64,000 nucleotides of DNA from Squalus acanthias (Eukaryota). The position numbers were made by a program, and so were the translations under genes. The stretch is taken from NCBI GenBank assembly GCA_030390025.1, contig CM059432.1, positions 31,622,001-31,686,000 on the forward strand. The letters are read 5' to 3'. A model generated the notes under the pieces. That model was given only the letters and a program-made list of their open reading frames with translations, searched no databases and was not told the origin of the DNA. Positions 7,844 to 59,941 of the stretch are shown here, in pieces; the stretch's first letter is position 1; every line of letters starts with the position of its first letter.

Positions 7844-7870
7844 AATGTGTTTTGATGGTTAAAATATAAG

Positions 7871-12100: not shown

Positions 12101-13134
12101 TATAGGGAGGGAGGAACTTAAAACAATCACTATCACTAGTGAAAAAGTACTAGGCAAACTAATGGGACTAAAGGCTGACAAGTCCCCTGAACCTGATGGC
12201 CTGCATACTAGGGTCTTAAAAGAAGTGGCTGCAGAGATAGTGGATGCATTGGTTGTAATCTACCAAAATTCCCTGGATTCTGGAGAGGTCCCAGCGGATT
12301 GGAAAACCGCAAATGTAACTCCCCTATTCAAGAAAGGAGGGAGACAGAAAGTAGGAAACTAGAGGCCAGTTAGCCTAACATCTGTCATTTGGGAAAATGC
12401 TGGAAGTAATAACAGGACATTTAGAAAATCATAATACAATCAAGCAGAGTCAACATGGTTTTATGAAAGGGAAATCGTGTTTGAGAAATTTACTAGAGTT
12501 CTTTGAGGATGTAACGAGCAGGGTGGATAAAGGGGAACCAGTAGATGTAGTGTATTTGGATTTCCAGAAGGCATTCGATAAGGTGCCACATAAAAGGTTA
12601 CTGCACAAGATAAGAGCTCACGGGGTTGGGGGTAATATATTAGCATGGATAGAGGATTTGCTAACTAACAGGGATAAATGGTTCATTTTCAGGTTGGCAA
12701 ACTGTAACTAGTGGGGTGCCACGGGGATCAGTGCTGGGGCCTCAACTATGTACAATTTATATTAATGACTTGGATGAAGCGAGCAAGTGTACTGTAGCCA
12801 AATTTGTTGATGATACAAAGATAGGTGAGAAAGCAAGTTGTGAGGAAGACACAAAGGGCTGGATTTTGATACTGGGGCGGGCTGGGGTCGTGTAATCCAC
12901 ATTTTGTGTTAGCCACCTGTTTCTAAATCGATGTGGGAGAATGATGCCATTTTAACCTAATTGGCCAATTGAGTTTCAACGTGTGGGAACCCATGGCCAG
13001 TGAGTTTTTCCAGTCTGAAAGTCGCCTCCGATGACGTCATCATTGCTGCTGCATTTAAGGTCTGCAACAAGCCTTGCTTCTTCTGCAGACTGCCAAGCTT
13101 TTGCCCTTGCATGTTAGAGGCAACTGCAGGAAGA

Positions 13135-16100
13135 ATGGCCAGCCAGAGACCTAGGTCTGCACCCCGCTTTGATGACGTTGCCCTGCAGGCTTTAGTAGAG
13201 GGAGCAAGAGCAAACAGAGAGGTGCTCTTCCCTTCTTCAGGGAGGAGGAAGCCTCCCCAGCAAACCAAGACTGTGTGGATTGTAAAAGCTTTTATAGATA
13301 TGTGAAGAGAAAAAGATTAGTGAAATCAAGCATAGGTCCCTTGCAGTCAGAATCAGGGGAACTTATAATGGGGAACAAAGAAATGTCAGACCAATTAAAT
13401 ACATATTTTGGTTCTGTCTTCACAAAGGAGGACACAAATAACCTCCCAGAGATGTTGGGGAACATCGGGTCTGATGAAAGGGAGGAACTGAAAGAAATCA
13501 GTATTTGTAGGGAAATGGTGTTAGGAAAATTGAAGGGATTGAAGGCCGGTAAATCCCCAGGGCCTGATAATCTACATCCTAGGGTACTTAAGGAAGTGGC
13601 CCTAGAAATAGTAGATGCATTGCTGATCATCTTCCAACATTCGATGGAATCTGGAACAGTACCCATGGATTGGAGGGTAGCTAATGTTACCCCACTATTC
13701 AAAAAGGGTGGTAGAGAGAAAACGGGGAATTATAGACCGGTAAGCCTGACATCGGTAGTGGGGAAAATGCTAGAGTCCATTATAAAAGATGTAATAGCTG
13801 AGCACTTGAAAAACAGTGACAGAATCGGACAAAGTCATCATGGATTTACAAAAGGTAAATCATGTTTGACTAATCTACTGGATTTTTTTGAGGATGTAAC
13901 TGGTAAAATAGATAAGGGAGAACCAGTGGTTGTGGTGTATTTGGACTTCCAAACGGCTTTTGATAAGGTCCCGCATAAGAGATTAGTGTGTAAAGTTAAG
14001 GCACATGGGATTGGGGGCAAGGTATTGACTTGGATAGAGAACTGGTTGGCAGACAGAAAGCAAAGAGTTGCAATAAACGGGTCTTTTTCCGAGTGGCAGG
14101 CAGTGACTAGTGGGGTACCGCAGGGATCGGTCCTTGGACCCCAGCTATTCACAATATATATTAATGATCTCGACAAGGGAACTAGATGTAATATCTCCAA
14201 GTTTGCAGATGACACAAAACTGGGTGGGCGTGTGTGCTGCAAGGAGGATGCCGAGAAACTCCAGGATGATTTGGACAGGTTGGGTGATTGGGCAGAAGCG
14301 TGGCAGATGCAATATAACGTGGATAAATGCGAGGTTATCCACTTTGGTGGCAAAAACAGAAGGGCAGATTATTATCTGAATGGCAATAGATTGGGAGAAG
14401 GGGAAGTGCAACGAGACCTGGGTGTCCTTGTGCACCAGTCGCTGAAGGTAAGCATGCAGGTGCAGCAGGCGGTTAAGAAGGCAAATGGTATGTTGGCCTT
14501 CATAGCGAGAGGGTTTGAGTACAGGAACAAGGATGTCTTGCTGCAGTTGTACAGGGCCTTGGTGAGACCACACCTTGAGTACTGTGTGCAGTTTTGGTCG
14601 CCTTATCTGAGGAAGGATGTTCTTGCCATGGAAGGAGTTCAGCGAAGATTCACAAGGCTGTTACCTGGGCTGGCAGAAATGACATATGAAGAGAGATTGG
14701 GTCGATTGGGCTTATACTCGCTGGAGTTTAGAAGAATGAGAGGGGATCTCATTGAAACTTATAAAATTCTGACAGGACAGGACAAACTAGATGCAGGAAG
14801 GATGTTCCCGATGGTCGGGGAGTCCAGAACCAGGGGTCAGAGTCTAAGGATAAGGGGTAAGCCATTTAGGACAGAAATTAGGAGGAATTTCTTCACCCAG
14901 AGTGGTGAACCTGTGGAATTCTCTGCCACAGAAGGCAGTAGAGGCCAATTCATTAAATAGATTCAAGAAGGAGTTGGATATATTTCTTAAGGCTAAAGGG
15001 ATCAAGGGATATGGGGAGAAAGCAGAGACAGGGTACTGAATTTGGATGATCAGCCATGATCTCATTGAATGGCGGAGCAGGCTAGAGGGGCCGAATGGCC
15101 TACTCCTGCTCCTATCTTCTATGATTCTATGATTCTATGGATCCAGGTGGCAGAGGAGGTCAACTCTTTGTCAATAACCCGCAGAACCTGGCTTCAGTGC
15201 AGGAAGAGGCTTCATGACCTTCTGCGCACTGGAAAAGTGAGTATGAATTTTCCATCACCCTCAATCTGATCCCCATTGCCTCTCCTCACCAGCACTCAGC
15301 TTTAGCAATCTCTTCCTCCACATCCCACTTGACACTGACATCCATGCACCCTTACCCATTCCCTCTCTCTCTATGGTTTCATTCACCTAACTATTCGACT
15401 ATGCAGCCCTCACACTCCCTATCACTGTGATGCAATTACAACTTACAACACACAGGGAGGGCCCTTGGTCTTGCCACCTCACTCCATCTTTGTCTCCTTC
15501 TAAGCATCTATGCTATAGATTCTCTACACTCACTCCTTCATTCTCACTCAAACTCCACTTGTCTCCCTCATTGCAGGAAAAGAGCGGTCACAATAAGAGG
15601 GAAAGAGCGAGGACAGGAGGAGAGCCACCCTCAGTAGCCCAGCTCACCACCTGGGAGGAGGCAGTCCTGGAGATCGTGGGAGTAGAGGAAGATTCCCAAG
15701 TGGGGGACGGACAGACAGGCGCATCACAGCAAGCTGCTGACAGAATAGTTTTCCATCTCTCTCAATGACATTGCATGAGTCGCTGATAATGATTCTGAAG
15801 CTCTAACAGATGGACTTATGATCATCTGCAATATGCAATGTGCATGTAACCTTGGCCTCACATCTCTGACTCTTTCCTTTACTCCCCCCTAGGACCATCG
15901 CAAGCACCCGCCCCACTATCCAGGAGGAAGAGCATGAGCCTCAAGACTCCTCAGAGGAAGCTGCAACCTCTGAGGGCGCAGCGTCAGCAGGAATCAGCGC
16001 ACCCAGCACCAGCGCAGACACTCACACCTCGGAGGGAACATCGCGAGATAGAGTAGTGTTGTCACCTGGTATATCACAGCTCACAAGTGAGCATCAGCAG

Positions 16101-16958
16101 ATGGTGGAGACAGGGACAGCAGTGGAGAGTCCTAGTCGGAGGGCGCAGGACTCTCCCAGCTCGGCTCAGCTGCATGTCGACCCTCTGCCTCTGGATCCAT
16201 CCATAAGATCAGCGGTGCTGGAACTCCAGGAACAGATGCAGGAGTCTCTGACAGGTTTTGTCTCCAGGGTCGCTGTGAGTGTGGAGCGAATGGAGGAGTC
16301 CATTGCGAACATGACCAGAGCCTTTGTGGAGTCATTGGCGCATGAACGCATCACCACGGAAAGGATGGCAACCTCCGTGGAAAGGATGACTACAGTAGAG
16401 GAGAGGATGGCTACGGCCATGGAGGAGCTAAGTCGCCAGAGTGTAGAAAACATGGTCATTGTTCAGAATAGACTGGCATCTCTTGAGGAGCGATGGTCAG
16501 CTACTGAGCATAGAAACCAGACCTTCATGGAAGTCCTCTGGAGTAGGACTTCCAGTGCAGAAATGGGTCCTCATGGCCCCCCTGAAGTGCAGCAAGGTGC
16601 TGTTAAGCCACTTGCTAGCTCTGAAGTGGGGCTGACCCATGAGAGGGATGTTGGTGGCAGACAACAAGGAAGTGGGGGCTCCTCTCCAAGCGCTCAAACA
16701 ACCATGCCACTGCAAAGCCCTCGGTCAGAGCCCCACCAGAGTCCTCACCCAACTGAGATGGGCGTCTCATCCCCTGCACAGCCGCAGGAGCAGCAGACTG
16801 TTGGCGAGCCCTCACAGGTTCGCAACCCCAGAGGACGCCTGCCAAAGGTGTCGAGACAGGAGCAGCAAGAAAGTGAGCAAGGGACCTCCACATCTGCTGA
16901 AGCCACAGGGGAAGCACCACGTAGGAGCACGCGTAAGAGAAAGATAGTGCACAAATAG
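13135..16958 (+). pseudogene. Harbinger Myb/SANT-like DNA-binding gene, 3 exons (13135-13280 + 15143-15236; 15577-~15736; 15893-16958), disrupted
   Basis: MASQRPRSAPRFDDVALQALVEG...KTVW|IQVAEEVNS...RTWLQCRKRLHDL is a trihelix/Myb pattern. Donor gtgagt at 15237, acceptors ttgcag (15576) and cccctag (15892). Exon 2 reads EKSGHNKRERARTGG. Exon 1 is broken by a CR1, the exon-2 donor appears mutated (ct), and there is a possible frameshift near 15915. Confidence 0.85.
13281..15137 (+). mobile_element. young 5'-truncated CR1 LINE with long open RT frame (13275-14960)
   Basis: 561-aa ORF with [23 protein letters not shown]. Ends in a (ctatgatt)n tail. TGGAT repeated at both junctions (13276-13280; 15138-15142). 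Confidence 0.96.
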
Positions 16959-17214
16959 TCACAAGGGTAGTCACTTGGGGGACTTTTGATGTTTTATGTT
17001 AAAAAGCCATCAGATGATTACTGTAAATAAAAAATCTGATGGCTACTGCTGTAGTTGTGGCATGTGTCATTTCGCGAATGGGACTTCCACATTGAGGGCT
17101 TAGGATTACTTGCAATTGCCAGTATGGTGTTCAAATTGCTAGGAATCGCTGGTTCTTGGCCATTGTCGATGCTCAGGTAAGACGCTACGAGGCAAAAGTG
17201 CTTGATTGGCTAGG

Positions 17215-18443
17215 CTAAGCAAATCTGGCCAAGATGAGTGCGTTCCTTGCATCCCGGGCAGCAATGTTCTCGCGTACTGCTGTCGCTGGTTGATGGGCCT
17301 CTGCAAGATGTTCATTTTCGACCTCCTCCTCCTCCTCCTCATCGGAGGAGGATATGTGATGAGCCACTTGGTCCTCAGGAATCTGCAAGCCACGACACTG
17401 TGCCATGTTGTGAAGTGCACAGCAAACCACGACGATTCTGGAGACCCTGGCTGCTGAGTATTGCAGGGCTCCACCTGATCTATCCAGGCATCTGAAGCGC
17501 ATCTTCAGAAAACCAATGGTTTGCTCGATTATGGCTCTGGTGGACTTGTGGTTGGAGTTGTAGCTCTCCTCAGCTTCGTTGGATGGGCTCCTCAACGGCG
17601 TCATTAGCCACGACTTCAGGGGATAGCCCTTGTCTCCAAGTAGCCATCCGTTAAGTTGGTCTGGCGGACTGAATAGCGGAGGCACACTAGACTGGCGCAG
17701 TATGAAGGAGTCATGGCAACAGCCAGGGTACTTGGCACAAACATGCAAAATTTCCTTCTTGTGGTCACACACCAGCTGAACGTTAAGGGAATAGAAGCCC
17801 TTGCGGTTGACAAAAATACCTGGATTGCGATGGGGTGCCTTAAGGGCCACATGTGTGCAGTCAACGACGCCCTGCACCCTTGGAAAGCCTGCCAGATTAG
17901 CTAATCTAACCGCACGCGCCGTGACACTTGCTTGATCCTTGGTGAAATGGATGTGAGTGTGCGCGATGGCAAAGAGGGCATCGGTTACCTGCGTGATGCA
18001 GGTGTGTGCGGCCGCTTGGGAGATGCCGCTGATGTCTGCTGCTGATCCCTGGAATGACCCTGAGGCAAAAAAGTTGAGTGCAGTGGTGACTTTGATGGCC
18101 ACTGGTAAGGGTTGTCCACCTGGTCCTCTGGGCTCCAGGTCTTGTTGCAGCATTGCGCAGATGTCACCCACTACCTCTCGCGAAAGTCGGAGCCGCCTTT
18201 GGCATTGCTGCTCAGACATGTTGAGGTAGCTGTAGACCCTGTTTGGGGGTATCTCCTGCGCCGACGGGCTTCCATGCGCTGGCCCCTTCTGGCCTGTGCA
18301 GCTTCAGGTGGGTGAGCAGCAGCTTGGCGCTCCTGTTGTTGTTGCTGCTGTTGGTGCTGCTGTTGTTCATGGTTCTGCTGGTGCCGCGGCTGGTCTTCGA
18401 CCTCATCTGATGTCCAGAAGGGATGGAAATAAATGGCTCCCAT
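17215..18443 (-). CDS. Harbinger (HARBI1-like, DDE_Tnp_4) transposase; 334-aa core open at 17215-18219, Q-rich N-terminus separated by a frameshift near 18240
   Basis: HTH-like region ([11 protein letters not shown]...ISQAAAH), catalytic motifs [34 protein letters not shown]. Upstream ORF 18171-18443 supplies MGAIYF...RRRRRYP. Confidence 0.93.
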
Positions 18444-19919
18444 GCTTCTGGTATATGCCTCAGTTGAGGAAGTGCTCAGTCAAGGTGGCGAGAGGGGTTT
18501 CCCAGGAAGTCACACTGGAGATGGGTATCAGGCTCCAAACTTCCACAGCTGTGGTTATGCCTTCTAAAAGTTCCCCCAGACCTGAGACAACAAAGTCCTG
18601 CCACCTGCAAATGATGGCTGATCAAATCTCCTATTTAATGGTTGAGCTGCAGCTGACAGTCAGCAATCAATTGTGCTACCGCCAGGTTTCACCATCGTGT
18701 TTCAGAACAGGCGTGCTTCACGTGGGAAAAGGGTTAAAATCACAATGGCCTATCAAAATGGCATTATAGAGGCAATTTAGTGCTTGTTAAAGGCCTTAAC
18801 GGCCTATCCCGCCTCTTGGAGGCGGGACCAGTAGACACGATTTAATGAATATTGCGTGGAGGCGGGATCGGGCCTGCCCGCCAGTTTTTGTAATTTTAAC
18901 CACCCACACGCCTCCAATCCCGCCTCAACGGCCCGATGAAAATCCAGCCCAAAGAGTCTGCACAGGGATATAGATAGGTTAAGTGAGTGGGCAACTATTT
19001 GGCAGATGGAGTATAATGTGGGAAAATGTGAGGTTAGCCACTTTGGTAGGAAAAATAAAAAAGCAAATTATTATTGAAATAGAGAGACTACAAAATGCTG
19101 CGGTACAGAGGGACCTGGGGGTCCTCATACATGAAACACAAAAAGTTAGCATGCAGGTACAGCAAGTAATTAGGAAGGCAAATGGAATGTTGACCCTTAT
19201 TGCAAGGGGGATGGAGTATAAAAGTAGGGAAGGCTTGCTACAACTGTACAGGGCGCTGGTGAGACCACACCTGGAGTACTGTGTGCAGTTTTGGTCTCCT
19301 TATTTAAGGAGGGATATACTTGCATTGGAGGCAGTTCAGAGAAGGTTCACTAGGTTGATTCTTGAGATGAAGGGGTTGTCTTTTGAAGAAAGGTTGAGCA
19401 GGTTGGGACTATACTCATTGGAGTTTAGAAGAATGAGAGGTGATCTTATTGAAACATATAAGATTCTGAGGGGGCTTGACAGGGTAGATGCAGGGAGGAT
19501 GTTTCCCCTCGTGGGGGAATCTAGAACTAGGGGGCATAGTTTCAAAATAAGGGGTCGCCCATTTAAAACGGAGATGAGGAGGAATTTCTTCTCTCACAGG
19601 GTCGTGAATCTTTGGAATTCTCTACCCCCAGAGAGCGGTGGAGGCAGAGTCATTGAATATATTCAAGGCGGAGATAGACAGATATTTGAGCTACAGAGGA
19701 GTCAAGGGTTATGGGGAGCGGGCGGGAAAGTGGAATTGAGGCCAAGATCAGATCAGTCATGATCTTATTGAATGGCAGAGCAGACTCGAGGGGCCAAATA
19801 GCCTACTCCTGCTCCTATTTCTTATGTTCTTATGTTCAATGGAACTGAATATCAGGCGGCTGATCCAATACCGCCTGTTTTGTGCCAACACCCGAGATGA
19901 ATTTCTAGCCCACAGAATC

Positions 19920-20200
19920 TAAACCAGGAGATATATATTAGAATATTTAATTCATTGTAAAATCAAGTACTTAAAGCAAAATAAAGAGAGGGAAAGAAAG
20001 ATGGGATTAAGAGAGATAAAAGAGACAGATAGAAAAAGTAAAAAAAAAAATTACATTTTTAAATCTTTTTAAATCTCCAACAATAATTAAATCCTGAAGG
20101 AATGAGATTTCACACGTAAAATTTAATTTTCAGTGCCAGAGAGGTTGTTTGGCAGTAATTAAGACTTATCACCCCATTAAAAATTCATTTACACCTTTAC
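19920..20200 (+). mobile_element. internal fragment of the MITE family seen at 36328-37388
   Basis: Shares aaagagacaga.agaaaaagtaaaaaaa...gccaga.aggttgtt..gcagtaatta with 36640-36830. Confidence 0.6.
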
Positions 20201-20854
20201 TAAGTTTTAGAACTTTAGGGGATAAAGATGGGGAAAGATGGCAAAGGATAGAAAAGGTAGAAAAAAGTAACATTACAAAGTAACTAAACAATTGGATGGA
20301 TAGAGTCGTAAAAATAGGGGCAGCAGGGTGAGCAGCACTAAGTTGAAATACCTTTAAATGCGTATTTTAGTTTGATAGAGTTAATATTAACGGTACTTCA
20401 TAGGAACATTAGGAACAAGAGTAGGCCATTCAGCCCCTCGGGCCTGCTCTGCCATTCAATTAGATTATGGCTGATCTGCACCTCAACTCATTTTCCTGTC
20501 TTTGCTCCATTTCCCTTGATACCCGTACATAATAAAAATCTGTATATCTCATGATGCCCAATTCTGTAATGCTAGTGTTATTGTCAGGATCATAGTGCAT
20601 GAGCTGAAAAAAAATGGGACAGGAATTCCCTTGAGCCTGTTAGTCTGCAATAATTATGTATTACAACCACTCAAATACCTAAATGTAGATAAGTCAGAGG
20701 TTTTTGAAATGACAGTGCAGTTAGGATGTTAGCTCTTAGTTGACTCTTAGCTTCCTAGAAAAAGAAAGAACTCGCATTTATAAAGTGCTTCATTAACCCA
20801 AAACACTTCAAAACAAATGACCTTTGAAATGCGGTTGTTGGAGACAAAAATGAA

Positions 20855-21139
20855 GGGCTAGGAATTCCCCTCGAGCCCTGTTTGGGCCGCGAAATCAGAA
20901 AAGCTGGAAAAGTTAGAGCCAGGCGTTAACCTCTTCCAGCCTTTCGAAAATTCTCACTTTTTGCTCCAAGAAGGAAGTGGAGCGTTAAATCAAGCACTCT
21001 ACTTCCTTCTTGGAGCACAAGAGGGGGGGGAAGTTCACGACCCGGGCTGCACGGCTCAGCAGCGCCACGCACTGGGCCGCATGGCACCGACGCGTTGCAG
21101 GGTCTCTTCCCACTGGAGGCGCAGGGAAATTTCTCCCCC
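20855..21139. mobile_element. short Harbinger-like MITE (related to 7137-7843)
   Basis: Ends GGGCTAGGAATT / GGGGGAGAAATT (rc). Internal gcgttaaatcaagcact resembles 7262-7280. Confidence 0.55.
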
Positions 21140-21143
21140 TAAA

Positions 21144-21530
21144 TGTCAGCCTTGACGCAGCGGTAGCACTCTCACTCCTGAGTCAGAAGCCCCACCCCAG
21201 AGACGTGAGTAAATAATCTAGGTTGGCACTTCAGTGCAGTACTGAGGGCGTGCTGCAACGTTAGAAGAGCCATCTTTTGGATGAGATGTTAACCGTCTCA
21301 GGTGGATGTAAAAGTTCCCACGACACTATTTCGAAGAGCAGCAGGAGTCATGGCCAACAGTTATCCCTCAACCAACGCATGACCACAGATGATCTGGTCA
21401 TTTATTTTATTGTTCAAGCTTGCTGTGTTTCCTACATTACAACAGTGACTACACTTCAAAAATACATCATTGGCTATAAAGTGCTTTGGGACATTCTGAG
21501 GTTGTGAAAGACACTATATAAATACAAGTC
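21144..21530 (+). mobile_element. DeuSINE (SacSINE1-like), degenerate
   Basis: tRNA-like head, Deu-domain text and L2-like tail, as in 31608-32067. Confidence 0.75.
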
Positions 21531-21671
21531 ATTTTTTTAGTTGACGTGCATAAACTGTTTCAACTTGTTGGTGAGTCTAGAACTAGGATGCATAAATATA
21601 AGATAGGCACTAACAGATTAAATTAGGGGTGGACAAATATTTGGGCTGGAGGGCCACTTATATTTATATAG

Positions 21672-21848
21672 AAAAGCAAAATACTGCGGATGCTGGAAAT
21701 CTGAAATAAAAACAGAAAATACTGAGCAGGGCAGGCAGCATCTGTGGAGAGAGAAACAGTAGTTCTGACGAAAGGTCATCGACCTGAAACGTTAACTCTG
21801 TTTTTCATCTCCACTGCTGAGTATTTCCAGCATTTTCTGTTTTTATTG
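21672..21848. mobile_element. short fold-back Penelope pLTR insertion
   Basis: Antisense arm followed by sense arm of the pLTR seen at 43607-44104. 11-bp TSD TATTTATATAG (21661-21671; 21849-21859). Confidence 0.85.
21761..21797 (+). ncRNA. minimal type I hammerhead ribozyme motif (Penelope-associated)
   Basis: AGTT-CTGACGA-A-AGGTC(ATC)GACCT-GAAA-CG-TT-AACT: core CUGANGA/GAAA, 5-bp stem II, stem I AGTT/AACT, loopless palindromic stem III ACGT. Confidence 0.8.
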
Positions 21849-22802
21849 TATTTATATAGCACCTTTAACGTACTAAAACGTACCAAGGCGCTGCACAGGA
21901 GCGCAAAAAGAAATGTGATACCGCGCCACATAAGGAGATATTAGGGCAGATGACCAAAAGTTTTAAGTAGCGTCTTAAAGGATGAAAGAGAGATACAGAG
22001 ACAGAGAGGTTTAGGGAGGGAATTCCAGGGCTTAAGGCCTTGGCAGCTGAAGGCACGGCCACCAATGGTGGAGTGATTAAAATTGGGGATGCTCAAGAGG
22101 CCAGAACTGGAGGAGCACAGATATAATAAGAACATAAGGAATAGGAGTAGGAGTAGGCCATTTGGCCCTTCGAGCCTGTTCCACCATTCAGTAAGATCAT
22201 GGCTGATCTTCTACCTCATCTCCACTTTCCTGCACTATCCCCATATCCCTTGATTCCCTTAATATTCAAAAATCTATCAATCTCTGTTTTGAATATCTGA
22301 GGATTGTAGGGCTGGAGGAGTTTACAGAGATAGGGAAGGTTGAGGCCATGGAGGGATTTAAAAACAAGGATGAGAATTTTTAAATTGAGGCGTTGCTTAA
22401 TCAGGAGCCAATGTAGGTCAGTGAGCACAGTGGTGATGGGTGTACGGGACTTGGTGTGATTTAGGACACGGGCAGCAGAGTTTTGGATGACCTCAAGTTT
22501 ACAGAGAGTAGAACGTGGGAGGCCAGCCAGGAGTGCGTTGGAATAGTCAAGTCTAGATGTAACAAGGCATGGATGAGGGTTTCAGCAGCAGATGAGCTGA
22601 GGCAGGGGTGGAATCAGGCGATGTTATGGAGGTGGAAATAGGCGGTCTTAGTGATGGCGCAGATATGTGGTCGGAAGCTCATCTTGAGGTCAAATAGGAG
22701 ACCAAGGTTGTGAACAGTCTGGTTCAGCCTCAGACAGTTGCCAGGGCGAGGGATGGAGTCGGTGGCTAGGGAATGGAATTTGTGGTGGGAACCGAAGACA
22801 AT
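21849..22802 (-). mobile_element. L2 LINE 3' part, with a CR1 3' tail (about 22125-22296, -) inserted
   Basis: LTDLHWL..KQRLNLKILILVFKSLHGL and GGRAFS..WNSLP motifs, L2 tail. Confidence 0.88.
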
Positions 22803-24400
22803 GGGGGGAATTTTTCGGGGGTCAGCGGGCGCGTTTGGTGGCGGGTCGGGCTGTCACACTAGTTTCCCAGATGTTGGGTCTGTCATCGCTGAACAGACCC
22901 GACACCAAGCGGCGGGGGAGGGAATTTAGATGATTAAGAGCTTGTTAACAGGCACCTAAAAAATATTTTAAGCTCACCTTTAGATTTTAGGAGTTCGCCC
23001 ACGGCTCCCCCGCTGCTCGGGGATCACTTCAGGTAAGCAGGTCAGGAGTTGTGTCAGCATGGGATGATTCCTTAACTTGACAGCTGCAAATGTGCTGTTA
23101 AAGCTCCCATTTCATAGCTGTTCACTTTCCAAGCTCGGAAGCTGTTGCTTACTGCATTTGGAAGACAGATTGAGCTTTATGCAGCTTGCAAGTGTTTGGA
23201 GCAAACTCTCTATCCAGTGTCACCTCATTTGAACGACCTCTCTCACCACTGACAGATCGCTTCTGTCATCTCTACTTCACCTGCCATCTATTCCATTAGC
23301 ATCGGTGCCCTTGAAACTATCTCACCTTTGTCCTCAGAATCCCACCACGATCAGTCCCAACACCAGCAGCACCAGGCACACCAGCAGCACCAACAACAAC
23401 ACCAATCTTCTCCCCAATCAACTGATGCTGCACAGGACACAGGGCATCAACACCCGACCATAATGCTGCCCAAGATGCAGGGATGGCCTCACCATAGCCA
23501 GATTTACTTCACTTGACGCTGTACACCCTGGCTGCCACATGATGCGCCAGGTTGGCACCACCCCACACCAACACCATAAAGCATCCCTACAATGCCCAAA
23601 CCATTCCTTTCACACTCATCGCCATTGCGGGAGGTACCATTGTGACTCACCGTCCATGGCAACTCACTAAACCACTTCCAAAAGGTGCACACAAATCTAT
23701 CCAAGAACACAAAGTGTTGAAAATAAAGATTTCAATGTTTGACACCACATTAACAGAAACTTCACAAGAACATTGGATAAAACACCCAAGTGCCTATCCT
23801 TGTGTGTTGTTAGTTGGTGTGATTGGACTAGGATGAGTGTGAGTGTGAGGGGTGGCTAGTGAGATGGGGATGTGATAATGTAGATTGAGAGGGATGGGTG
23901 GAGATGCAAGGTAAGTTGGTGTGAGTAAGGACGTGCAGGAGTAGGGTAGAGAAGGTAGAGTGATGGGGATGTGATGTGAGGCACAGCAGGATGAGGTTGA
24001 GTGTGGCTTTGTACTAACGCTTTGTGATCTGCTGAGATCATTGAAAAGTTTGTGGCACTGCACCCAGATCCTGCTGACCACATCCCTGCTTGTGTCCTCC
24101 TGTGCAATGTACAACCAGGCTGTGTTGATCTCCTAGGGAGGACTTCTCTGCCCATGGGAAGGGAAGAGGACCTCCCTGTGTGCTGTGACTCCCTCCATAA
24201 GCATATGGAGGAAGTCATGGGAGAGCCTGGGTGCAGGCCTGCACCTCTGTGCAGTGCTTGTCAGTGTTTGCAGCACCTCAATGCTGTGGAACACTGACAG
24301 CAGAACTGTCACAATCAATTTGCGCATGGTCCCTTTAAGGAAACTGGCTGATGATTCATCATCAAGTGACATCATCAGACCCGTTTCCTTCAATTCATTG
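22803..24400. mobile_element. internally deleted, degenerate Harbinger element (divergent family)
   Basis: Starts GGGGGGAATTTT. Q/H-rich transposase N-terminus on + (23328-23516). Myb exon 1 remnant on - (PAPRLSHDFLHMLMEGVTAHREVLFP; RIWVQCHKLFNDL). Same convergent layout as 12856-18950. Confidence 0.75.
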
Positions 24401-27730: not shown

Positions 27731-27818
27731 TTACAACCCCTTTAAGAGTGTACTTAAATGACATACAGTTTCTGTGCTTTGAATAGAGGAGCAGAATTGC
27801 AGGGAAACAGGGAAGTAT

Positions 27819-32067: not shown

Positions 32068-32461
32068 TGTTACTACCCAGCACAAAAATCAGGACAAACT
32101 ATTTAACTAAATTGGGGCGAGCTTTAAGAAATCTAAGTTAAATGCTGGTGGGAACATAATTTTGTGGGACAGTTTAGCAACATGCTGCCACCAGAACTTT
32201 ACACAACTGAGCAGAGCACTGGTGAGAAGAGGCTGAGCAGCAGCAAACTTACTACCTACACTCAAGAGCTGCCAACTACACCTCAAGCGCAGTCTGTACA
32301 CATCGTGGCCCTAATGTTTGTCATTGTCACCTTTAATTCTATACTCAACAGATAATGGTTGAGTTCAGTCATTCAAATTGAATAGGGCATTGAGCTGATA
32401 AGTAATGGTATCATTAATTGAAGTGATAGTTGGCACTGTGACTATAACCAAGGATATTAGG

Positions 32462-33009
32462 GTATTCCAACCCACTCCTGGCTGGCCTCCCACATTCCAC
32501 CTTACGTAAACTTGAGGTCATCCAAAACTCGGCTGCCCGTGTCCTAACTCGCACCAAGTCCCGTTCGCCCATCACCCCTGGGCTCGCTGACCTACATTGG
32601 CTCCCGGTTAAGCAGCGCCTTGATTTCAAAATTCTCATCCTTGTTTTCAAATCCCTCCATGGCCTTGCCTCTTCCTATCTCTGTAATCTCCTTCAGCCCC
32701 ACAACCCCCCGAGATATCTGCGCTCCTCTAATTCTGCCCTCTTGAGCATCCCTGATTATAATCGCTCAACCTTTGGTGACCGTGCCTTCTGTTGCCTCGT
32801 CCCTAAGCTCTGGAATTCCCTGCCTAAACCTGTCCGCCTTGCTACTTCTCTTTCCTCCTTTAAGACGCTCCTTAAAATCTACCTCTTTGACCAAGCTTTT
32901 GGTCACCTGCCCTAATTTATCCTTATGTAGACCGGTGTCAAATTTTTTGTCTTAAAATACTCCATTTTACTACGTTAAAGGCACTATATAAATACACGTT
33001 GTTGTTATT
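32462..33009 (+). mobile_element. L2 LINE 3' fragment
   Basis: Near-identical to the reverse complement of 60712-61280. Confidence 0.9.
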
Positions 33010-33931
33010 GGTATAACTTGTGTTTGCTACACCCAACTGAACTCACTAAAGGAATATATTAAAGCAAGGTTATGGTGTTCTGGGGGCTGTTAAAAACCTG
33101 ATGGGGATGAGACTTTTATAAAAACATGTCAAGAAGGCCTGACTGAGCATGTACAAAATTGATACAGGGCCACCCCACATCCACAAAGAAAAAATGGGGC
33201 CACGCGCACTTGTCCACAGAGCTTTCATCAAAGTTTCACTATCCAGTTGATTGATTATTATTTTTTGTGTTCTTGTGAAGCGCCTTGTGACGTTTTACTG
33301 CATTAAAGACACTATATAAATATAAGTTGTTGTTATATAATTCTCCCCCAAACGCAACAGGGAACCAGTATAACTGTACTGCTTTGTCAGAAAATAAAAT
33401 GCACTAGAGGAATGTACACTATAAACTGCAATATGCCATAAATATGCTGCAATATGCCATAAAGATTAGAAAAATCTTCTGTTATTGCACAATAATTACC
33501 CCAAATACTGGAGGGAGGAGTGTGACGAGGATATGCCCCTCAACTTTTTAAACAAGGGATTATATGTCCCCCCTCTCCAAATCCCCAAAAATGTATCTAT
33601 GTACAAATGTATAACCAGTTCTTTCTTTACGTCTGTACAACCGCAGGGCACATATTCCCGCCCCAGCACAAACATTTTGCACTGGTGTCCTCTGCCCAAA
33701 TCCCAGAATTTTATCCCCGCTCGCCCCAACTACCCTAAAATATACTTGGCTGCGCCTCTGCTGAAAACACACGAAGTTACCGGAAAATAATGGTAACATT
33801 TCATATTTTTTTAAATATATAAAAACACACATCACCTCAATACTGTGCACACCGTCTGGCCTCTATTAGAACATCAACATTCTGGGAACAGGCTGCAAAT
33901 TTAAATGATCCTCTTAAATATATACACTTAC

Positions 33932-34098
33932 ATTTCTTTTTGAAGCAATGCGTCAAAATGCAAGTCCAACTTTCTGGAGTTTTTGTTAAAAAGTAGCCGA
34001 ACGTGACAGAAAATACTGCAGCAATGCGAGTCGATGCCTACTTCCTGGACAAGTTGGAAGGATTGCAGAACAGAAACAGCTCGACACTTTGGCAACAT
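33932..34098 (-). CDS. candidate first coding exon of an unidentified host gene (MLPKCRAVSVLQSFQLVQEVGIDSHCCSIFCHVRLLFNKNSRKLDLHFDALLQKE.., phase 2)
   Basis: ATG at 34098 with A at -3. 167 nt open up to a consensus donor GTAAGT (33931-33926). Lies in a repeat-free, CpG-retaining island. Product not recognised. Confidence 0.4.
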
Positions 34099-34599
34099 TT
34101 TGTAGCTATTAAAAAAAACTGGAACAACCGCTTGTCTCGCTTGCACCTCAAAATGTTTCCAAATGTGAAGAATGTTTCTACACCACCCAGAAAAGTTTTT
34201 GAAAGTACCAAAAAAAACTTGTTTTACCTCAAGTCTGCAGCTCAATTTGATCGTCGTGTTTTCTGCTGTGGTTTTTTTTCTCTCTCACTTGCTCACGTCC
34301 GGAGTGCCTTCCTCTTTATTGGGACTTGTTTTTTTTGTTGTTGTTGAGATACAGGAACAAGCTCCTCTAGCTCTGGTGACATTAAGTGAGGGGGTGGGGG
34401 GTCCTCTCCTGCTCTGGGCACAGCTGAGGGCAGCGTGAGCTCTCCCTCACCCCAAGGGGACAGGTGCCACTCTCTGCCAAAGAAAAGAAGCGGGGCAAAG
34501 CAACGCCTTCCCTGTTTTTTTTGCTCTTCTATTTTTTTCTCCTTTGCAGATAAATCAGTGGCAATCTCCACTCCAAGCTTGCTACTTTACTTTCTGCAG

Positions 34600-34780
34600 T
34601 CTCCAAACTTTCCCCCCCACCGACCAGCTCTGTTTCTTGCTTTCACTCACTCTTCTGTTTTTCCGTGTGAAAGTTCAGCATGCTTGCGTCAATGTAACAT
34701 GAGTACCAAGAAACCATGACGTGGCGCACACCGCCTCATCCTTCTGCACTTGGCATTGCATGCACACCGGTACTGTACAA
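34600..34780 (-). promoter_or_regulatory. candidate promoter with bZIP sites
   Basis: TTGCGTCAAT (34684-34693; C/EBP-CRE hybrid) and TGACGTGG (34717-34724; CRE/UPRE-like), upstream of the candidate exon. Confidence 0.3.
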
Positions 34781-34945
34781 GATGCAGCAGAGATTCTGAG
34801 CGTCCCTGGATTTCCCCAGGTGTCCTGCATTGCCGACCAGTCATTTTCTTGCTGTCAGGTTACAATGTTAAGAATGAGATTTATGTATGATCAAAATAGA
34901 TTGCAAATCTATTTTTGCTTCATTTCTAACAGGGTTTCCTTCCAT

Positions 34946-35408
34946 AAAGAAAAACTTGCATTTATATAGCACCTTTCACGACCACCGGATGTCTCAAAGC
35001 GCTTTACAGCCAATGAAATACTTTTGTAGTGGAATCACTGTTGTAATGTAGGAAACGCAGCAGCCAATTTGCACTCAGCAAGCTCCCACAAACAGCAATG
35101 TGATAATGACCAGATAAACTGTTTTTGTTGTGTTGATTGAGGGATAAATATTGGCCAGGACACCAGGGATAACTCCCTGCTCTTCGAAATAGTGCCACGT
35201 GATCTTTTACATCCACCTGAGAAAGCAGACGGGGCTTCGGTTTAATGTCTCATCTGAAAGACGGCACCTCCGACAGTACAGCACTCCCTCAGCACTGTAC
35301 TGGACTGTCAGCATAGCTTTATGTGCTCAAGTCCCTGGAGTGGGACTTGAACCCACAACCTTCTAACTCAGAGGTGAGTCTGCTACCTACTGAGCCACAG
35401 CTGACACA
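34946..35408 (-). mobile_element. DeuSINE (SacSINE1-like), full length
   Basis: Reverse complement of the 31608-32067 family. Confidence 0.88.
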
Positions 35409-36327
35409 TGTAATATAATCCTTTTATAATATGTTCTCAGATGTGATAGTGGTAAGGCCAGTATTTATTGCCCATTACTAGTTGTCTTGAGAAGGTGGTG
35501 GTGGTGGGCTTTCTGCTTGAACCACTGCCGTCCTTATGGTGGTGGTGTTCCCACAATGGTGTTTAGTAGTGAATTCCGATTTTTTTTGACCCACTGAGAT
35601 AAAGGAATGGAGATATATGTCCGAGGATGGTGTGTGACTTGGAGCGGAACTTGGAAATTATGCTGTTCCCACGACATTGCTGCTTTTGCTCTTCTTGATG
35701 GCAGAGATCAAAGGCTTATACCATAGGTTTTCCATTTGCGGCCCCTGGACCCTACAGGGTCTGCAGGAAAATCTCAGGGAATCTACAGGATCATCAGATT
35801 TCTGTATTTGTTGACAATATCATACAATAGCCTAGAAAATACTGCCAGCAAAAGTGCTTTACCAGCAAGGCTGGCATTTATGGCCCATCCCTAGTTGTCC
35901 TTGAGAAGGTGGTGATGGGTCTTCTTCTTAAACCATTGCAGTCTGGGTGGTGAAGGTGCTACCACATGCTGATAGGTAGGGATTTCCAGTATTTTATTAA
36001 TAAATGGGAAACAGAAATCATGGATTTGGGAATTTTCTCGCTTTCAGCCTACTCTGTGCTTCATGAAAAATTCCTTAACTGTTGGCACGCTGTCACAGGA
36101 ACAGGAATCTGCCATTCAGCCCAATGAGCCTGTTCTGCCATTCAATTAGATCATGGATGATCTTTACCTCAACTTCATTTACCCATCTTTTTCCATATCT
36201 CTTGATAGCCTTAACCTAACAAAAATTTTATTGAATGGAAATTAAAAGTTTGAATTTTAACTTTGTAAATGTAAGTGAGTTAGCAGTTAACTGCTAGTCA
36301 ACTGTAAGTAGGTCACAATTAGATACT

Positions 36328-37388
36328 GGCCCAGATTTTTCTCTCCACGGCAAAGGAACAGCGCTCACTGTTCACCATGCTCGCAGCTGCCCACAGACTT
36401 TTTGCGGGCCTGTCAGCGGAGATTTCCTCTAATCCGGCGTCTTTTCCAGCGTGGCGCCCTTTACAGGGGATCTGTGGCATGTACGAGCAGGGAAAGCAAC
36501 TGCGTGGCTCTTCAACCAATCAGATTGAAGAATCCTCACTGAGACATGCAGAGTCCAAACCAGGAAATATAAAGCAGGAAATATAAATTAAATTTAAATA
36601 ATGTACAGAAAGTGAAATAAAGATTGATAAATACAGATGGGAATAAGGGAGAGAGATAAAAGAGACAGACAGAAAAAGTAAAAAAAGTTTTATTTTAATT
36701 TAAATGTTTTTCTAAATCTCCAACACTAATTTCCTTCTGACGAAATGAGACTGCACACTTGGAAAATTAATTTTGCAGGGCCAGAAAGGTTGTTCAGCAG
36801 TAATTATCATGTCGTTTAAAAACTCACTCCTGAATGCACCAGTCCTAACTTTTTCAGACAATTTTAGTGTGGAACTGGTAGACAAGCACAGCAAGTTTTA
36901 TTTAATTCATTCTTGGGATGTGGCCATCACTGGCAAGGCCAGCATTTATTGCCCATCCCTAATTGCCCTTGAGAAGGTGGTGGTGAGCCACCTTCTTGAA
37001 CCGCTGCAGTCCATGAGGTGAAGGTACTCCCACAGTGCTGTTAGGGAGGGAGCTCCTTGATTTTGACCCTGCAATGATGAAAGAACGGTGATATATTTCC
37101 AAGTCAGGATGGTGTGTGACTTGGAGGGGAACGTGCAGGTGGTGGTGTTCCCATGCGCTTGCTGGCCCTGTCCTTCTAGGTGGTAGAGGTCACGTCGTTG
37201 GAGTCATTTCAATGCTGAATTTATCGGCGAGCTCTGTTACAGTGCACCCTGTGGAGGAGCAGGCTATCTCTGACAGCAGCTCCTTGATTTCTGTGTTTAA
37301 TTGTGCATGTGTGTTTCTGTCAGATTTCCTCCATTATAACGGTGAGCACCGACGGCCTCATTGTTATCCTCATCGCAAATTCAGGGCC
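36328..37388. mobile_element. Harbinger-like MITE with a family-B LINE tail inserted (about 36905-37190, -)
   Basis: TIRs GGCCCAGATTTT / GGCCCTGAATTT (rc). TSD ACT (36325-36327; 37389-37391). Confidence 0.7.
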
Positions 37389-37399
37389 ACTGTGTAGTT

Positions 37400-40075
37400 G
37401 GGAGCTGATTGACCAGTTGAAACTGGTTTTGTCTGTCACTACAAGCTCCAGCTTGAGCTGAGACTGCAAGACAGAGAGGTGGGAACAGTGACACTAAAGC
37501 TATCTAAAATAGGAAGTTGGTAAGAGTAGGAATTAGGTGAAGAGGAGGAAGGAAGTGCTAAGTAATTTAAACAGAGGGACAACAGCAAAAGAGAAAGAGG
37601 GAGAGAGAGAGGGAGGCACTCTAAGTAAAGAGAACTTTAAGTAAATAACAGTTAATTCCAGTGAAGTGGATGGGCAGCTGAGACCCATTGCCTGCCATTC
37701 CTGTGCCATGAGGGAACTCCAGAACGCTTCTTGCGTCCTGGATAACCACGTGTGCAGGAATTGCCTCCTGCTGCTCAAGCTCAGGGTTTCTGAACTTGAG
37801 GAGCGGCTGGTGTCACTGCAGGGTATATGGGAGGCTGAATGTTTCCCGAATCGCATGTTCCAGGTGGTGGTTACACCGCAGCCACAGAGAGTTTAGGAGG
37901 ACAGTAAGTGAATGGCCATCTGGCAGGGTAGGAAGAAGAGGCAGGCAGTGCAGGAATCCTCTGGGTGTGTGGCACTCACAAACCAGTTTTCAGTGCTTAA
38001 TAGCTGTGAGGGTGACGGCACCTCATGGGAGTACAGTCTAGAGCAAATCCATGGCACTGTGGGGTGAAGGACTGCACAGGGAGGCACAATAAAGTGCAGA
38101 AATGCAGTTGTCATAGGGATTCAATAGTTAGGGGAACAGATAAGCATTTCTCCAACTGCCGACATGACTCTCGCATGGTGTGTTGCCTCCCTGGTGCCAG
38201 GGTAAAGGATGTTATGGAACAGATGCAGTACATTCTGCAAGGGAAAGGGTAACAACTCAAAGTCGTAGTCCATGATGGAATTAATGACATAGGAACGAAA
38301 AGGGTTGAGGTCCTGCAGTCAGAGTTTCAGGAGTTAGGGAGGGAGTTTAAAGAGCAGAACCTCAAAGGTGGTCATTTCTGGATTATTCCCAGTGCCACGT
38401 GCCACAGTATAGAAACAGTAAAATAAAGCAGGTTAATGTGTGGCTGGAGAAATGCAGGAGGGAGGGGTTCAGATTCCTGGGGCATTGGGACCAGTTAAGG
38501 GACAGGAGGGACCTGTACAAGGTGGATGTGTTGCACCTCAACAGGGCTGGACCAATGTCCTTGCGAGGAGGTTAACTAGTACTGTGGGGGAGGGTTTAAA
38601 CTCATTTGGCAGCTAGAGCGGCACTAGGATGAAGCATTAGAAAAGAGAAACAAGGTGCACATAGGACTGGGAGAGACAAATAGGGCTGGATTTTGTCTTG
38701 GGGTCGGGTTGGGGTCGTGTAATCCGCACTTCGTGTTTCCCCCCCGACTCCAGATTAATGTGGATGCCTGATGCAATTTTCACTTAATTGGGCAATTGAG
38801 TTGGAGCATGTGGGAACACATGAACTAATTAGTGTTTTCAGTCTGAAAGTCACCTCTGATGATGTCATCATTGCTGACTGCCTAGTCTCAGAGACTGTTG
38901 GTGAGAGAGGACCTGCCTGGCTTTTGATGTGAGTGGACCTGGATATATATGTGAGAGTGTGAGAGAGAGAGAGAGAGAGTGTCAGAGAGAGAGAGAGAAT
39001 GAACTTTTTGGCCAAGCAAGTCCTCCCAGGCAGTCTCTGAAGACATTCAATGCAGCAGCATCAGAGGCGACTTTCAGACCTAATACTACTACTACTACCT
39101 TCATCACATCTCCGTTGTAATAGTGGACCTGCAGCCGATAGTCAGCTATCCACTTGTGCTCCCGCCAGGTTTCACTGGAGTGTTTCACACCAGGCGTGCT
39201 TCACGTCAGAAGAGGGTTAAACTAGCTACAGCGTTTCAAAATGGTATTACAGAGCCAATTTAGAGCTTGTTAAGGGCTTTAATGGCCTCTCCCGCCTCTT
39301 GAAGGCGGGACGGAGTCGGGAACCCCACGACTGATTCTGTCAAAATTGCATGGAGGCGGGATGGAGTCGGGATGGGGTCGGAAACCCCGACCCCGCAAAT
39401 TTAACCCCCCACACGCCTCCAAACCCGACTCCATGGGTCATTCAAAATCCAGCCCATAGCATTAGAATAAAGAGTAGTTCAGAAATAGGAGGGATCAAAC
39501 AGGGGGGAAATTTGAGGTAGACTAGGATGGGATTGGAGAGCATGTGCGTAAATGCACAGAGTGTGGTAAATAAAGTTGGTCAGCTGCAGGCACAAATTGC
39601 TGCATGGTGGCAAGAATGGAGACCTGGCTCAAACAAGGGGAGGATTGGTTATTTAATATTCCTGGCTACAAAGTATTCAGGAAAGATAGGGAAGGAAAAA
39701 AAGAGGGTGGGGTGGCAGTATTGATCAAAGATACAGTAATGGAAAGGGATTATGTACTTGAGGGTTCAAAGACAGAATCCATTTGGTTAGAAATAAGGAA
39801 CAATAGAGGAGCTATTATGCTGCCGGGTATATACTACTAGGCCACTAAATAGTAGGAAGGAGATAGAGGAGAAAAATTTGCAGGCAAATTTCAGAAAGAT
39901 GCAAGAACTGTAGAGTAGTGATAATGGGGGACTTCAATTATCCTAATATAGACTAGGAAAATAACAGTGTAAGGGCAAAGAGGGGGAGGAATTCCTGAAA
40001 TGTGTACAAGAGAACTTTCTTGATCAATATGTATCCAGCCCAACGAGGAAGGAAGCAGTGTTGGATCTGGTTCTT
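37400..40075 (+). mobile_element. CR1 5' part: ORF1 (Cys finger and SGNH esterase) plus start of ORF2 endonuclease, decayed
   Basis: CHSC..HVCRNC, DSIVRGTD...VCCLPGARVKDV, CVNAQSVVNK, ETWL, MGDFN. Split by the MITE at 38683-39455. Confidence 0.88.
38683..39455 (+). mobile_element. non-autonomous MITE of the 12856-18950 Harbinger family
   Basis: Perfect TIR GGGCTGGATTTT, TSD ATA, both subtermini homologous to the autonomous copy. Confidence 0.93.
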
Positions 40076-40649
40076 CACTTTAACCTCAACTCCATATCAA
40101 GGAACCGTCTGGGGTTTACCACCCATTCTATGCCTAGGAGCTAATGATGCCTAAATGTGACTCATCAAGCTGTTTTACATCAACCAGTTCGGATTATATT
40201 AGCAGTTACACTACCAACCACCCATCAGGATCCGCACAAGCAACTGAATGTATGAATTAACCCTTTCTTGCCGATGATGCTGTCTTAAATCTTACTTCAC
40301 TTGCTCAAGAAACTTTGTTCATTTAAGTGACACTTATAATCTGCCTGTATCTGTCTGGTATATCCGTACAATCTTAATTTCTGGAACTTTTCTCCCTGTC
40401 GTTCCAGTTTTACAGAGACATTTTTCTACGTACACTAGAGAAAGAAATCCTACACCTTCTTCTACAAAGACTACTACAAGAACTATTAAAAGAACTAGAA
40501 TTAAACTGAGAACTTTAGTGTCTAAAACATCATCTTGTACATCCTTAATTTCCAAAGAAACCTTTCAATTCTAAGTGACACCTGTTAAAAGAGTTCTGCC
40601 CATGTTATCATCCCTGATGACCTCCAATGGTGGCAGAATAAGTAAATTC

Positions 40650-41130
40650 AATTAAAGAGAAGGAAACTATTAGTCGTTTCAGCATGCTGTGGATAAATGG
40701 AGTTTAGAAATCAATTAAAATTAAAGAAGAGGGCCCATGGGGACTATAAAATAATAATTATAAAACTCAGGGAGAAGAGGTTAAGAGAGGGCTAAGGAAA
40801 GCTTATGAGGGGGAAAAAAATCATAAAACAGCAAAAGGAACAGTAAAGTATTCTGCAAGTCTATGAGTAAAAAAGAGAATTGTTAAAAGTGAGTTGGGAC
40901 CCTTGAGATTTGTAGATGATGATCAAAAAATGGCAGAGGTATTTAAGTTATTTGCATCGGTCTTTATTAAAGAGAACAATATCAGAGAGGAGGTGAATCC
41001 TGAAGTGGTTGAGAGCAACTGAGAAATATTATATGAATAAAAGGAACATTTTAGATAAGTTAATTTGGCTAAAGGAAGACAAAGCACCAGGACTAGGATA
41101 CTGAGGGAGATGAGTGAAGAGATTGCTTTG
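40650..41130 (+). mobile_element. old CR1 ORF2 fragment
   Basis: Degenerate MAEVL..YFASVF.KE and KAPG text (atggcagaggta, tttgcatcggtcttt, gacaaagcaccagga). Confidence 0.6.
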
Positions 41131-41503
41131 ACCGGGTGTGGGAATCAGGTGGGGGTGGGGGGTGGCGAGGCGAGCACTAAAACCCCCTGACCTCGGCAGC
41201 ATGAGGCCTGGGTGATTTTAGCTCCTGGGCCTCACCTGCATGCTTCAGGTTTGCTGCCCACGCAAAACCTGTTTGCGTCTCTTTTGGTTCCGAGTCCGCT
41301 TCCCAGTGTCTTCACTTAGCAGAAAAGCCACGATAGCTTGCCTGCTCAGGTCAGAATTAAAATTGCAATCAGGGCCTGATGACATCATCAAAGACTGATC
41401 TGCATATTTAAGGAAGGAGCCCACTGGCTTCAGGTGAGTGTCCTTGCCGCCTGCACAGAACAACAGCCTAAAACAAATCCACAGGCCCACGTACAGCTAT
41501 CTA

Positions 41504-41782
41504 AGAAAGACTTACATTATATACTACCTTTCATGACCACCAGATGTCCCAAACTGCTTTAAAGCCAATGAAGTACTTTTTGAAGTGTAGGAAATACAGC
41601 AGCCAATTTGCGCATAGCAAGGTCCCACAAACAGCAATGTGATAATAACCAAATATTCTGTTTTTAGCAATGATGATTGAGGGATAAATATTGGCCAGGA
41701 CTATGGGGTCAGGAGAACTCCCCTGCTCTTCTTCGAAATAGTGCCATGGGATCTTTTATGTCTTCCTGAGAGGGCAGACGGG
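41504..41782 (-). mobile_element. DeuSINE 3' half
   Basis: Reverse complement of the DeuSINE tail and core. Confidence 0.8.
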
Positions 41783-41853
41783 ATCTCTCTTACCTTATAT
41801 CTCAGCATGGAGCCTCTCAGCATCCCTGACTGACTATAGCATGAGATGCCTCT

Positions 41854-42288
41854 GGGCTGGATTTTCATAGACCCGTGGAGGCGGGTTTGGAGGCGTGTGG
41901 GGGGTTAAAATTGCGAAAAGTGGCGGGCGGACCCGATCCTGCCTCCATTCCGCCTCCACGCAATTTTGATGAAATCGTGTGCGGTGGTCTCGTCTCCGTC
42001 CCGCCTCCAAGAGGCGGGAGAGGCCATTAAAGCCCTTAACAAGCCCTAAATTGGCTCTGTAATGCCATTTTGAAACGTTTAAGCTAGTTTAACCCTTTTC
42101 CCACGTGAAGCACGCCTGATCTGAAACACGCCAGTGAAACCTGGTGGGAGCACAAGTGGATAGCTGACTATCGGAGATGTGATGAAGGTAGTAGTATTAG
42201 GTCTGAAAGTCGCCTCTGAGGCTGCTGCATTGAATGTCTTCAGAGACTGCCTGGCCTTTGCTGTGAGAGGACCTGGATGCAAAAAAAA

Positions 42289-42327
<39 letters not shown>

Positions 42328-42588
42328 CTGCTGCTCATTTTGCATCCAGATCCTCTCACAGCAAAGGCCAGGCAGTGTCTGACCTGCAATGCAGCATCAA
42401 TGATGACATCATCAGAGGCGACTTTCAGACTGAAACCACTAATTGGTTCATGGGTTCCCACATGCTGGAACTCAATTGCCCAATTAGGTGAAAATTGCAT
42501 CAATCTCCCACATCAAATTGCAGGCAGGTGGATAACACGAAATGCGGATGACACGACCCCAACCCGCCCCAGTATCAAAATCCAGCCC
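41854..42588 (-). mobile_element. non-autonomous MITE of the 12856-18950 Harbinger family (inverted)
   Basis: Perfect TIR GGGCTGGATTTT, TSD TCT (41851-41853; 42589-42591). Right end is the reverse complement of 12856-13060. Confidence 0.94.
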
Positions 42589-43010
42589 TCTGTGTCTGAC
42601 TGTTCCAAGCTGCCTTTTCTAGAGCGAGAGAAAATAAAGACTATCCTCTGGCTTCTCCTGCAACTCATTAAGGAGTGGCTGGCTAAGCTGCCAAGTGAAG
42701 TTGCCACGTTGAATGAAATAGTGGCCCTTTGCTGTGAAAGCTCATAACATTGGTATTGTCCATTCAGCTTAGCCCCCTTGCTAGCACATTGAATGAAAAT
42801 CCATTCTAGCGTCAGGTTGTGAACTGCTCTGGGAGGTATTAAACAGCTCCCCTTTGTCTCAAAGCTAATGTGACCTGCAAATGAACACAGTTAGATGGCT
42901 GTTCCATCTAGAATTCTACGTAAAAATCATAAATGGCTTGTATAGCTCTGGGAATTAAACTTTTGTAAACTGAACCTAAATTTATATCAATAACTAACCA
43001 AAATCCCTTC

Positions 43011-44014: not shown

Positions 44015-44067
44015 AAAACGCTGGAAAAACTCAGCAGGCCAGGCAGCATCCGTGGAGAGAGAAAGAG

Positions 44068-59861: not shown

Positions 59862-59941
59862 ATTCTGTGATATCTTGGGACACAGTATACATATACACAT
59901 ATACACACACACAAACAGCACCACATGGCTTTATTATTATA

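Follow-up and report, generated by a model that had tools for sequence, protein, structure and literature searches.

The 64,000-nucleotide stretch of Squalus acanthias DNA analysed here, hereafter the window (NCBI GenBank assembly GCA_030390025.1, contig CM059432.1, positions 31,622,001 to 31,686,000, forward strand), carries three insertions, E1, E2 and E3, of one PIF/Harbinger-type transposon family whose target choice is our subject. Insertion is sequence-selective beyond the 3-bp target site duplication (TSD), and the transposase probably reads a symmetric, degenerate target. An exact 12-mer, GGGCTGGATTTT, occurs six times in the window (12856+, 18950-, 38683+, 39455-, 41854+ and 42588-), and a de novo scan for terminal inverted repeats (TIRs) and TSDs paired these six ends into the three elements, each with perfect 12-bp TIRs and identical 3-bp TSDs. 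E1 (12856..18950, + strand) is a two-gene element of 6,095 bp, about 4.2 kb once a nested CR1 is discounted, and sits in the reverse transcriptase (RT)-coding region of a CR1-type long interspersed nuclear element (LINE). E2 (38683..39455, + strand) is a 773-bp non-coding miniature inverted-repeat transposable element (MITE) with the TIRs of E1, likewise inserted in a LINE, while E3 (41854..42588, - strand) is a 735-bp non-coding MITE. Orientation was assigned by subterminal alignment, in which E1 and E2 agree and E3 is inverted. The element left ends are 77-86% identical among the three copies (14-23% divergent), and beyond the 12-bp TIR the subtermini are unequal, with GTCGTGT.ATCC on the left versus GGAGGCGTGTGGG on the right. 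E3 (42201-42284 vs 42338-42430) and the equivalent part of E2 also contain an internal inverted left subterminal motif, CTGAAAGTCGCCTCTGA, flanking a (GA)n microsatellite. A fourth, older related fragment (54767..55165, + strand) retains the left subterminus and the start of the Myb gene but has lost its TIR, so its target is not readable.

The transposase gene of E1 (17215..18443, - strand) is open over 17215-18303 (362 aa) and matches DDE_Tnp_4 (PF13359) across the whole profile with E 3.7e-37. Its N-terminal ~65 codons, from ATG 18443, lie in another frame, which places a frameshift near 18250. The translation contains the motifs DCTH, GDKGY and IEQT, which we take to be the D-D-E triad. 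Among the best 120 of 251 homologues, most are named 'putative nuclease HARBI1'; the closest are from sharks (56-63% identity, 63% at the top), with rays close behind. A search for relatives in the PDB returned none at E<=1. The second gene, Myb/SANT-like, begins at ATG 13135 and spans 13135..16958 (+ strand) in its predicted exon structure. Its domain is split by the nested CR1-type LINE (13282..15137, ends approximate, + strand), which is 5'-truncated and has an RT open reading frame (ORF) at 13176-14960. The second Myb half (15138-15236) matches PF13873 with E 3.8e-5, above the cut-off, and the first half alone gave no domain match. We infer that the ORF at 15870-16958 is the last exon of this gene. 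The fourth fragment continues, near ~55140, past the point equivalent to the CR1 insertion and displays the uninterrupted Myb state. With a DDE_Tnp_4 transposase and a Myb/SANT ORF, the family is of the PIF/Harbinger type, as the first-pass annotation of this DNA had proposed.

Written in element orientation, with the TSD between hyphens, the empty sites are GAAGACAC-AAA-GAGTCT for E1, AGAGACAA-ATA-GCATTA for E2 and TCAGACAC-AGA-GGCATC for E3, exactly the sites, positions and TSDs that the first-pass annotation had given. The E1 left half-site AGACAC and its TSD AAA (12853-12855) occupy 12847..12855, and the second AAA (18951-18953) with the right half-site GAGTCT occupies 18951..18959, both on the + strand. 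For E2, also on the + strand, AGACAA with ATA (38680-38682) lies at 38674..38682 and ATA with GCATTA at 39456..39464. E3 is read on the - strand, where the element-left half-site AGACAC with AGA (TCT on the + strand, 42589-42591) lies at 42589..42597 and AGA with the element-right half-site GGCATC at 41845..41853. For both E1 and E2 the window contains LINE paralogues that lack the insertion and match the empty site gap-free (71-72% identity for E1, 67% for E2), confirming the element boundaries and a TSD of 3 bp; TSDs of 4 or 5 bp fail against these alignments. The window holds no paralogue spanning the E3 junction.

The three target sites are identical in 8 of 15 columns. Eight or more shared columns arose in only 2 of 500,000 random triples drawn from the window, which rejects chance agreement of the three targets, although the 15-column frame was picked post hoc, once the sites had been seen. 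Sequence-selective insertion beyond the TSD, which the first-pass annotation had inferred, is therefore real. One of the sites, that of E1, comes close to a palindrome by itself (AGAC..AAA..GTCT), also as described. From the same three copies the annotation had derived an orientation-specific consensus, AGACA(C/A)-ANA-G, and a directional transposase.

Additional junctions were taken from contigs of four public sequencing runs (X1, X2, X13 and X17; 20 runs were listed) placed on E3. Among the rows listed, flank letters at an element end were present in 11 rows or records, of which eight were used. The three dropped before counting all came from X2: a joint of 42588 to 42546 with an unclear boundary, which would read ..ACTT-TTT, a tandem dimer joined by TAA, whose flank is another copy, and record 31, with only two inferable flank letters. 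All junctions are written towards the element end. Left ends read AGAACC-TAT in the X1 consensus row (21 contigs, most stopping short of the flank), AGACAC-AAT in the X2 consensus row (36 contigs, agreement 0.74), GTACTC-TAT and CCACAC-TTA in single X13 contigs, and TGATCC-TTT in an X1 joint. Right ends gave AGAGAC-TTT in the X17 consensus (6 contigs, agreement 0.51), TAAAAC-AAT in the X13 consensus (2 contigs) and GGAAAC-AGA in an X2 joint.

In element orientation these TSDs are TAT, AAT, TAT, TTA, TTT, AAA, ATT and TCT. ANA accounts for one of the eight and TNT for four, so that ANA does not hold as the TSD of the family, while all eight fit W-N-W (W, A or T). As the first-pass annotation had maintained, the TSD is not limited to TWA, which is found in none of the three window sites and once outside (TTA). 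Every outside junction, at whichever element end, carries A(-4) and C(-1), numbered outwards from the TSD, and the combination of these two bases with W-N-W is met at 1.9% of window positions. When window and outside junctions are pooled, A(-4) and C(-1) are each present in 13 of 14 half-sites. The right-end consensus AGAGAC (X17) mirrors the left-end AGACAC. The consensus derived from the three copies thus describes all of those in the window but does not extend to the others, and its AGACA left flank survives as the plurality motif, exactly AGACAC in the X2 consensus row: an exact AGACA(C/A) occurs at one of five outside left ends, that row, and in none of the three single contigs.

We conclude that this is an ordinary two-protein PIF/Harbinger-type (Nuwa-like) family with MITEs. 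Its transposase probably recognises a degenerate, symmetric stretch of about 15 bp, for which (AG)A(CA)C|WNW|G(TG)T(CT) is the best notation, and the elements are likely to insert both ways round. By analogy with Harbinger3_DR of zebrafish, the Myb protein would bind the element ends and recruit the transposase. A two-fold symmetric complex would then place one half-site on each protomer, reading A(-4) and C(-1) most strictly, and a 3-nt staggered cut would be made around the A/T-rich centre. One strong half-site could compensate for a weak one, and, in line with the palindromic-target model, the element would enter either way round. The AGACA-ANA-G of the three window copies would then be the plurality sequence of that motif, sampled in three copies that all have their better half at the left end.

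Several observations weigh against full symmetry. E2 and E3 have right halves (GCATTA and GGCATC) that match the mirror motif at only two and one of six positions, the better half-site is on the left in all three window copies (probability 1/8, one-sided, under symmetry), and C(-3) is present in 6/8 left versus 1/6 right half-sites (p=0.10). The outside junctions, moreover, are a small, non-random sample among the rows listed, with 521 loose-end rows left out. Rows were conditioned on a first flank base equal or unequal to that of the window, and contigs that match one base further are likely to be over-represented. Three of the eight are consensus rows, possibly shallow in the flank (agreement 0.51-0.96), rather than single insertions, one more merges two contigs, four come from two other organisms (H and I), and W-N-W was defined and scored on the same data. 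Within these limits the sample establishes the existence of non-ANA sites and of a core common to both ends, but frequencies cannot be derived from it. Given the poor right halves, the better left half in each window copy and the lean at -3, a mild left-half bias may exist (p about 0.1).

Such a bias could arise if the target were partly directional, with a symmetric core (A(-4), C(-1), W-N-W) and unequal subtermini that favour the stronger half-site, AGACAC, at the element left through sequential half-site recognition. The transpososome would here break the symmetry of its target: it would read a palindromic core, dock the left end on AGACAC and insert with an orientation bias, leaving a W-N-W TSD. 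This would agree with AGACA on the left in all three window copies, with the C(-3) counts, with the X2 left-end row and with subtermini that diverge past the 12-bp TIR. However, when eight left ends were compared with six right ends (Fisher test on hand tallies), no significant difference emerged at any of six positions (p 0.10-1.0), the best of the six reaching 0.10, and on the right side AGAGAC of the X17 consensus and AGACTC of E1 are just as good as half-sites. AGACA(C/A) is found in 0/3 single left-end junctions, and in PMC2577343, which sets out the palindromic-target model, half-site quality did not predict strand in 10,221 insertions of the P element, a member of another superfamily, for which the same sequential model was rejected. 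We regard partial directionality, and with it a symmetry-breaking transpososome, as unlikely. The strictly directional target AGACA(C/A)-ANA-G is scarcely tenable: it fits the three window sites, but seven of the eight outside junctions are non-ANA (TAT, AAT, TAT, TTA, TTT, ATT and TCT), and organism A's TAT and AAT rows, having been clipped short of the TIR end, are free of the conditioning on the flank base. The data do not support a directional transposase, with the core A(-4)..C(-1) found at both element ends.

The shared flanks could also be homologous rather than selected, if the copies had inserted in, or been duplicated together with, the same LINE sequence. Both E1 and E2 do lie inside LINEs, and one outside junction looks CR1 RT-like by eye. 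Yet the E1 site aligns to the RT paralogues at 14106 and 62190, the E2 site to 56216-55912 and the E3 junction to nothing, flank similarity ends 6 bases from the TSD, and left-end divergence among the elements amounts to 14-23%, which makes an origin in a host repeat very unlikely. Co-duplication was rejected, the three flanks not being homologous to one another. The symmetric degenerate target is the reading we retain.

The family is very abundant, and the E3-type MITE is very high-copy in public runs: 9,782 and 12,695 contig pieces were placed on E3 from two organism A runs, and the runs of two further organisms contributed 104 and 8. E3 MITE 31-mers were found in runs X6-X20, whose labels name at least nine organisms besides A, at shares of 0.16-0.44; with two of these confirmed by contigs, the family is common to several species. 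A joint of 42589 to 41854 in X2 represents a head-to-tail MITE tandem dimer with a single TAA triplet between the copies, and other contig joints suggest same-family copies nested in one another. A left-end pattern that recovers all three window copies had no match in metagenome or viral contigs. The transposase profile detected 80 metagenome loci (29-54% identity), none of which showed DNA similarity to the family ends or a convincing pair of TIRs and TSDs, and had no match in viral or prokaryote contigs. A 2022 survey did not find Harbingers in the elephant shark and urged checks of other cartilaginous fish (PMC9179366). This shark family and its many elasmobranch homologues indicate that Harbingers are plentiful in cartilaginous fish. 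Because its copies are so numerous and its transposase is nearly complete, the family lends itself well to building a target logo and to testing orientation bias on natural insertions.

Other repeats in the window include an unrelated Harbinger-like element at 36328-37388, with ends GGCCCAGATTTT and GGCCCTGAATTT and TSD ACT, whose site TTAGAT-ACT-GTGTAG has the same symmetric pattern; it holds another nested repeat at 36896-37190. At least five further Harbinger-like families are represented by ends at 3932(-), 6940(-), 7137(+), 21139(-), 22803(+), 7870-8560 and 45300-46010. They have a GG-rich TIR start followed by A(A)TTT, and their partner ends are mostly lost or degraded. Among the single ends, 3/5 fit the symmetric rule (3932, 21139 and 22803), the fit at 6940/6941 is ambiguous and the 7137 end does not fit; boundaries within G-runs are ambiguous at 6940/6941 and 22803/22804. 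A distinct MITE-like element, a near-perfect palindromic repeat of ~250 bp with 119-nt arms (91% complementary) and a 2-nt loop, lies at 59937-60193, with partial copies at 21661-21858, 43008-43194, 43601-43651 and 44015-44105. Adjoining the fourth fragment, 53800-54710 resembles, by eye, the RNase H/integrase of a long terminal repeat (LTR) retrotransposon.

We compared the family with known PIF/Harbinger systems, drawing on the available parts of the papers cited. The primary paper behind the target of Harbinger3_DR is reportedly that of Sinzelle et al. 2008. All PIF/Harbingers characterised so far are described as having a preference that extends past the TSD (PMC2836001), so extended target choice is known; the W-N-W centre with AGACAC-like flanks appears to be a new variation on it. 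Maize PIF and rice mPing have a TWA TSD and a preference that covers only 3 bp on each side, 9 bp in all (PMC2836001), and TWA is the sole TSD mentioned in the accessible sections of PMC3014272 and bioRxiv 10.64898/2026.05.26.728016. Our literature searches, which did not cover Repbase/Dfam or supplementary files 2 and 3 and the logo figures of PMC4482050, yielded no paper dealing with the targets of Harbingers in sharks.

The closest counterpart is Harbinger3_DR, whose target is the palindrome AAACACCWGGTCTTT (PMC3016246), whose Myb protein binds the element ends and recruits the transposase (PMC2836001, PMC9179366), and which Han et al. 2015 list as NuwaI-2_DRer with a 12-bp TIR (PMC4482050). 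Like the shark family it has DDE_Tnp_4 and Myb_DNA-bind_5 genes, a GGG-starting 12-bp TIR, a 3-bp TSD and a near-palindromic target of ~15 bp, in which A(-4), C(-1), G(+1) and T(+4) are common to both. The Harbinger3_DR flanks AAACAC/GTCTTT are matched at 8/12 positions by E1, 7/12 by E2 and 8/12 by E3, against a background of at least 8 matches at 0.6% and at least 7 at 2.8% of window positions, so the comparison drawn in the first-pass annotation was apt. The two differ in the plurality left flank (AGACAC in the shark family versus AAACAC), in transposase length (~410 aa including the upstream frame versus 343 aa) and in stringency, the shark target looking more degenerate. They also differ in the TSD, which is W-N-W in the shark family. 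NuwaI is defined by a CWG TSD, a GGG-starting TIR and Myb_DNA-bind_5 (PMC4482050); the shark family has a TIR within the NuwaI range (12-61 bp, GGG start) and a Myb/SANT second ORF, but CWG is found in none of its 11 TSDs.

Nor do the other groups of that scheme accommodate it. NuwaII, defined by C|TNA|G (PMC4482050), shares with the shark family a C before and a G after an A/T-rich 3-bp TSD, a Myb/SANT ORF and a GG-starting TIR. However, although the flanking C/G is present in 13/14 half-sites of the shark family, TNA is found in only 1/11 TSDs (0/3 in the window, 1/8 outside), and A(-4) and the weaker AG(-6/-5) are absent from the description of NuwaII in the text of PMC4482050. Pangu has an ANT TSD and a second ORF without known motif, whereas here a Myb domain is present and ANT occurs in 2/11. 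PIF/Harbinger in the strict sense of Han et al. 2015 requires TWA, seen in 0/3 window sites and 1/8 outside junctions, besides the TAA-joined dimer. In the broad sense the family does belong to PHIS/PIF-Harbinger, with a DDE_Tnp_4 transposase, a Myb/SANT second ORF, short G/A-starting TIRs and a 3-bp TSD. In its target choice it behaves like Harbinger3_DR, with 7-8 of 12 flank bases per site and the core at both ends, but does not have the TSD of NuwaI, NuwaII, Pangu or TWA elements. Flanks like those of Harbinger3_DR thus accompany a W-N-W TSD outside the TSD classes that divide the PHIS superfamily, which suggests that flank reading may outlast the TSD in conservation. Were the symmetry-breaking reading true instead, the TSD would equally lie outside all six PHIS TSD classes, the family would show the sequential half-site recognition that work on the P element looked for in vain, and it would offer a handle for oriented integration.

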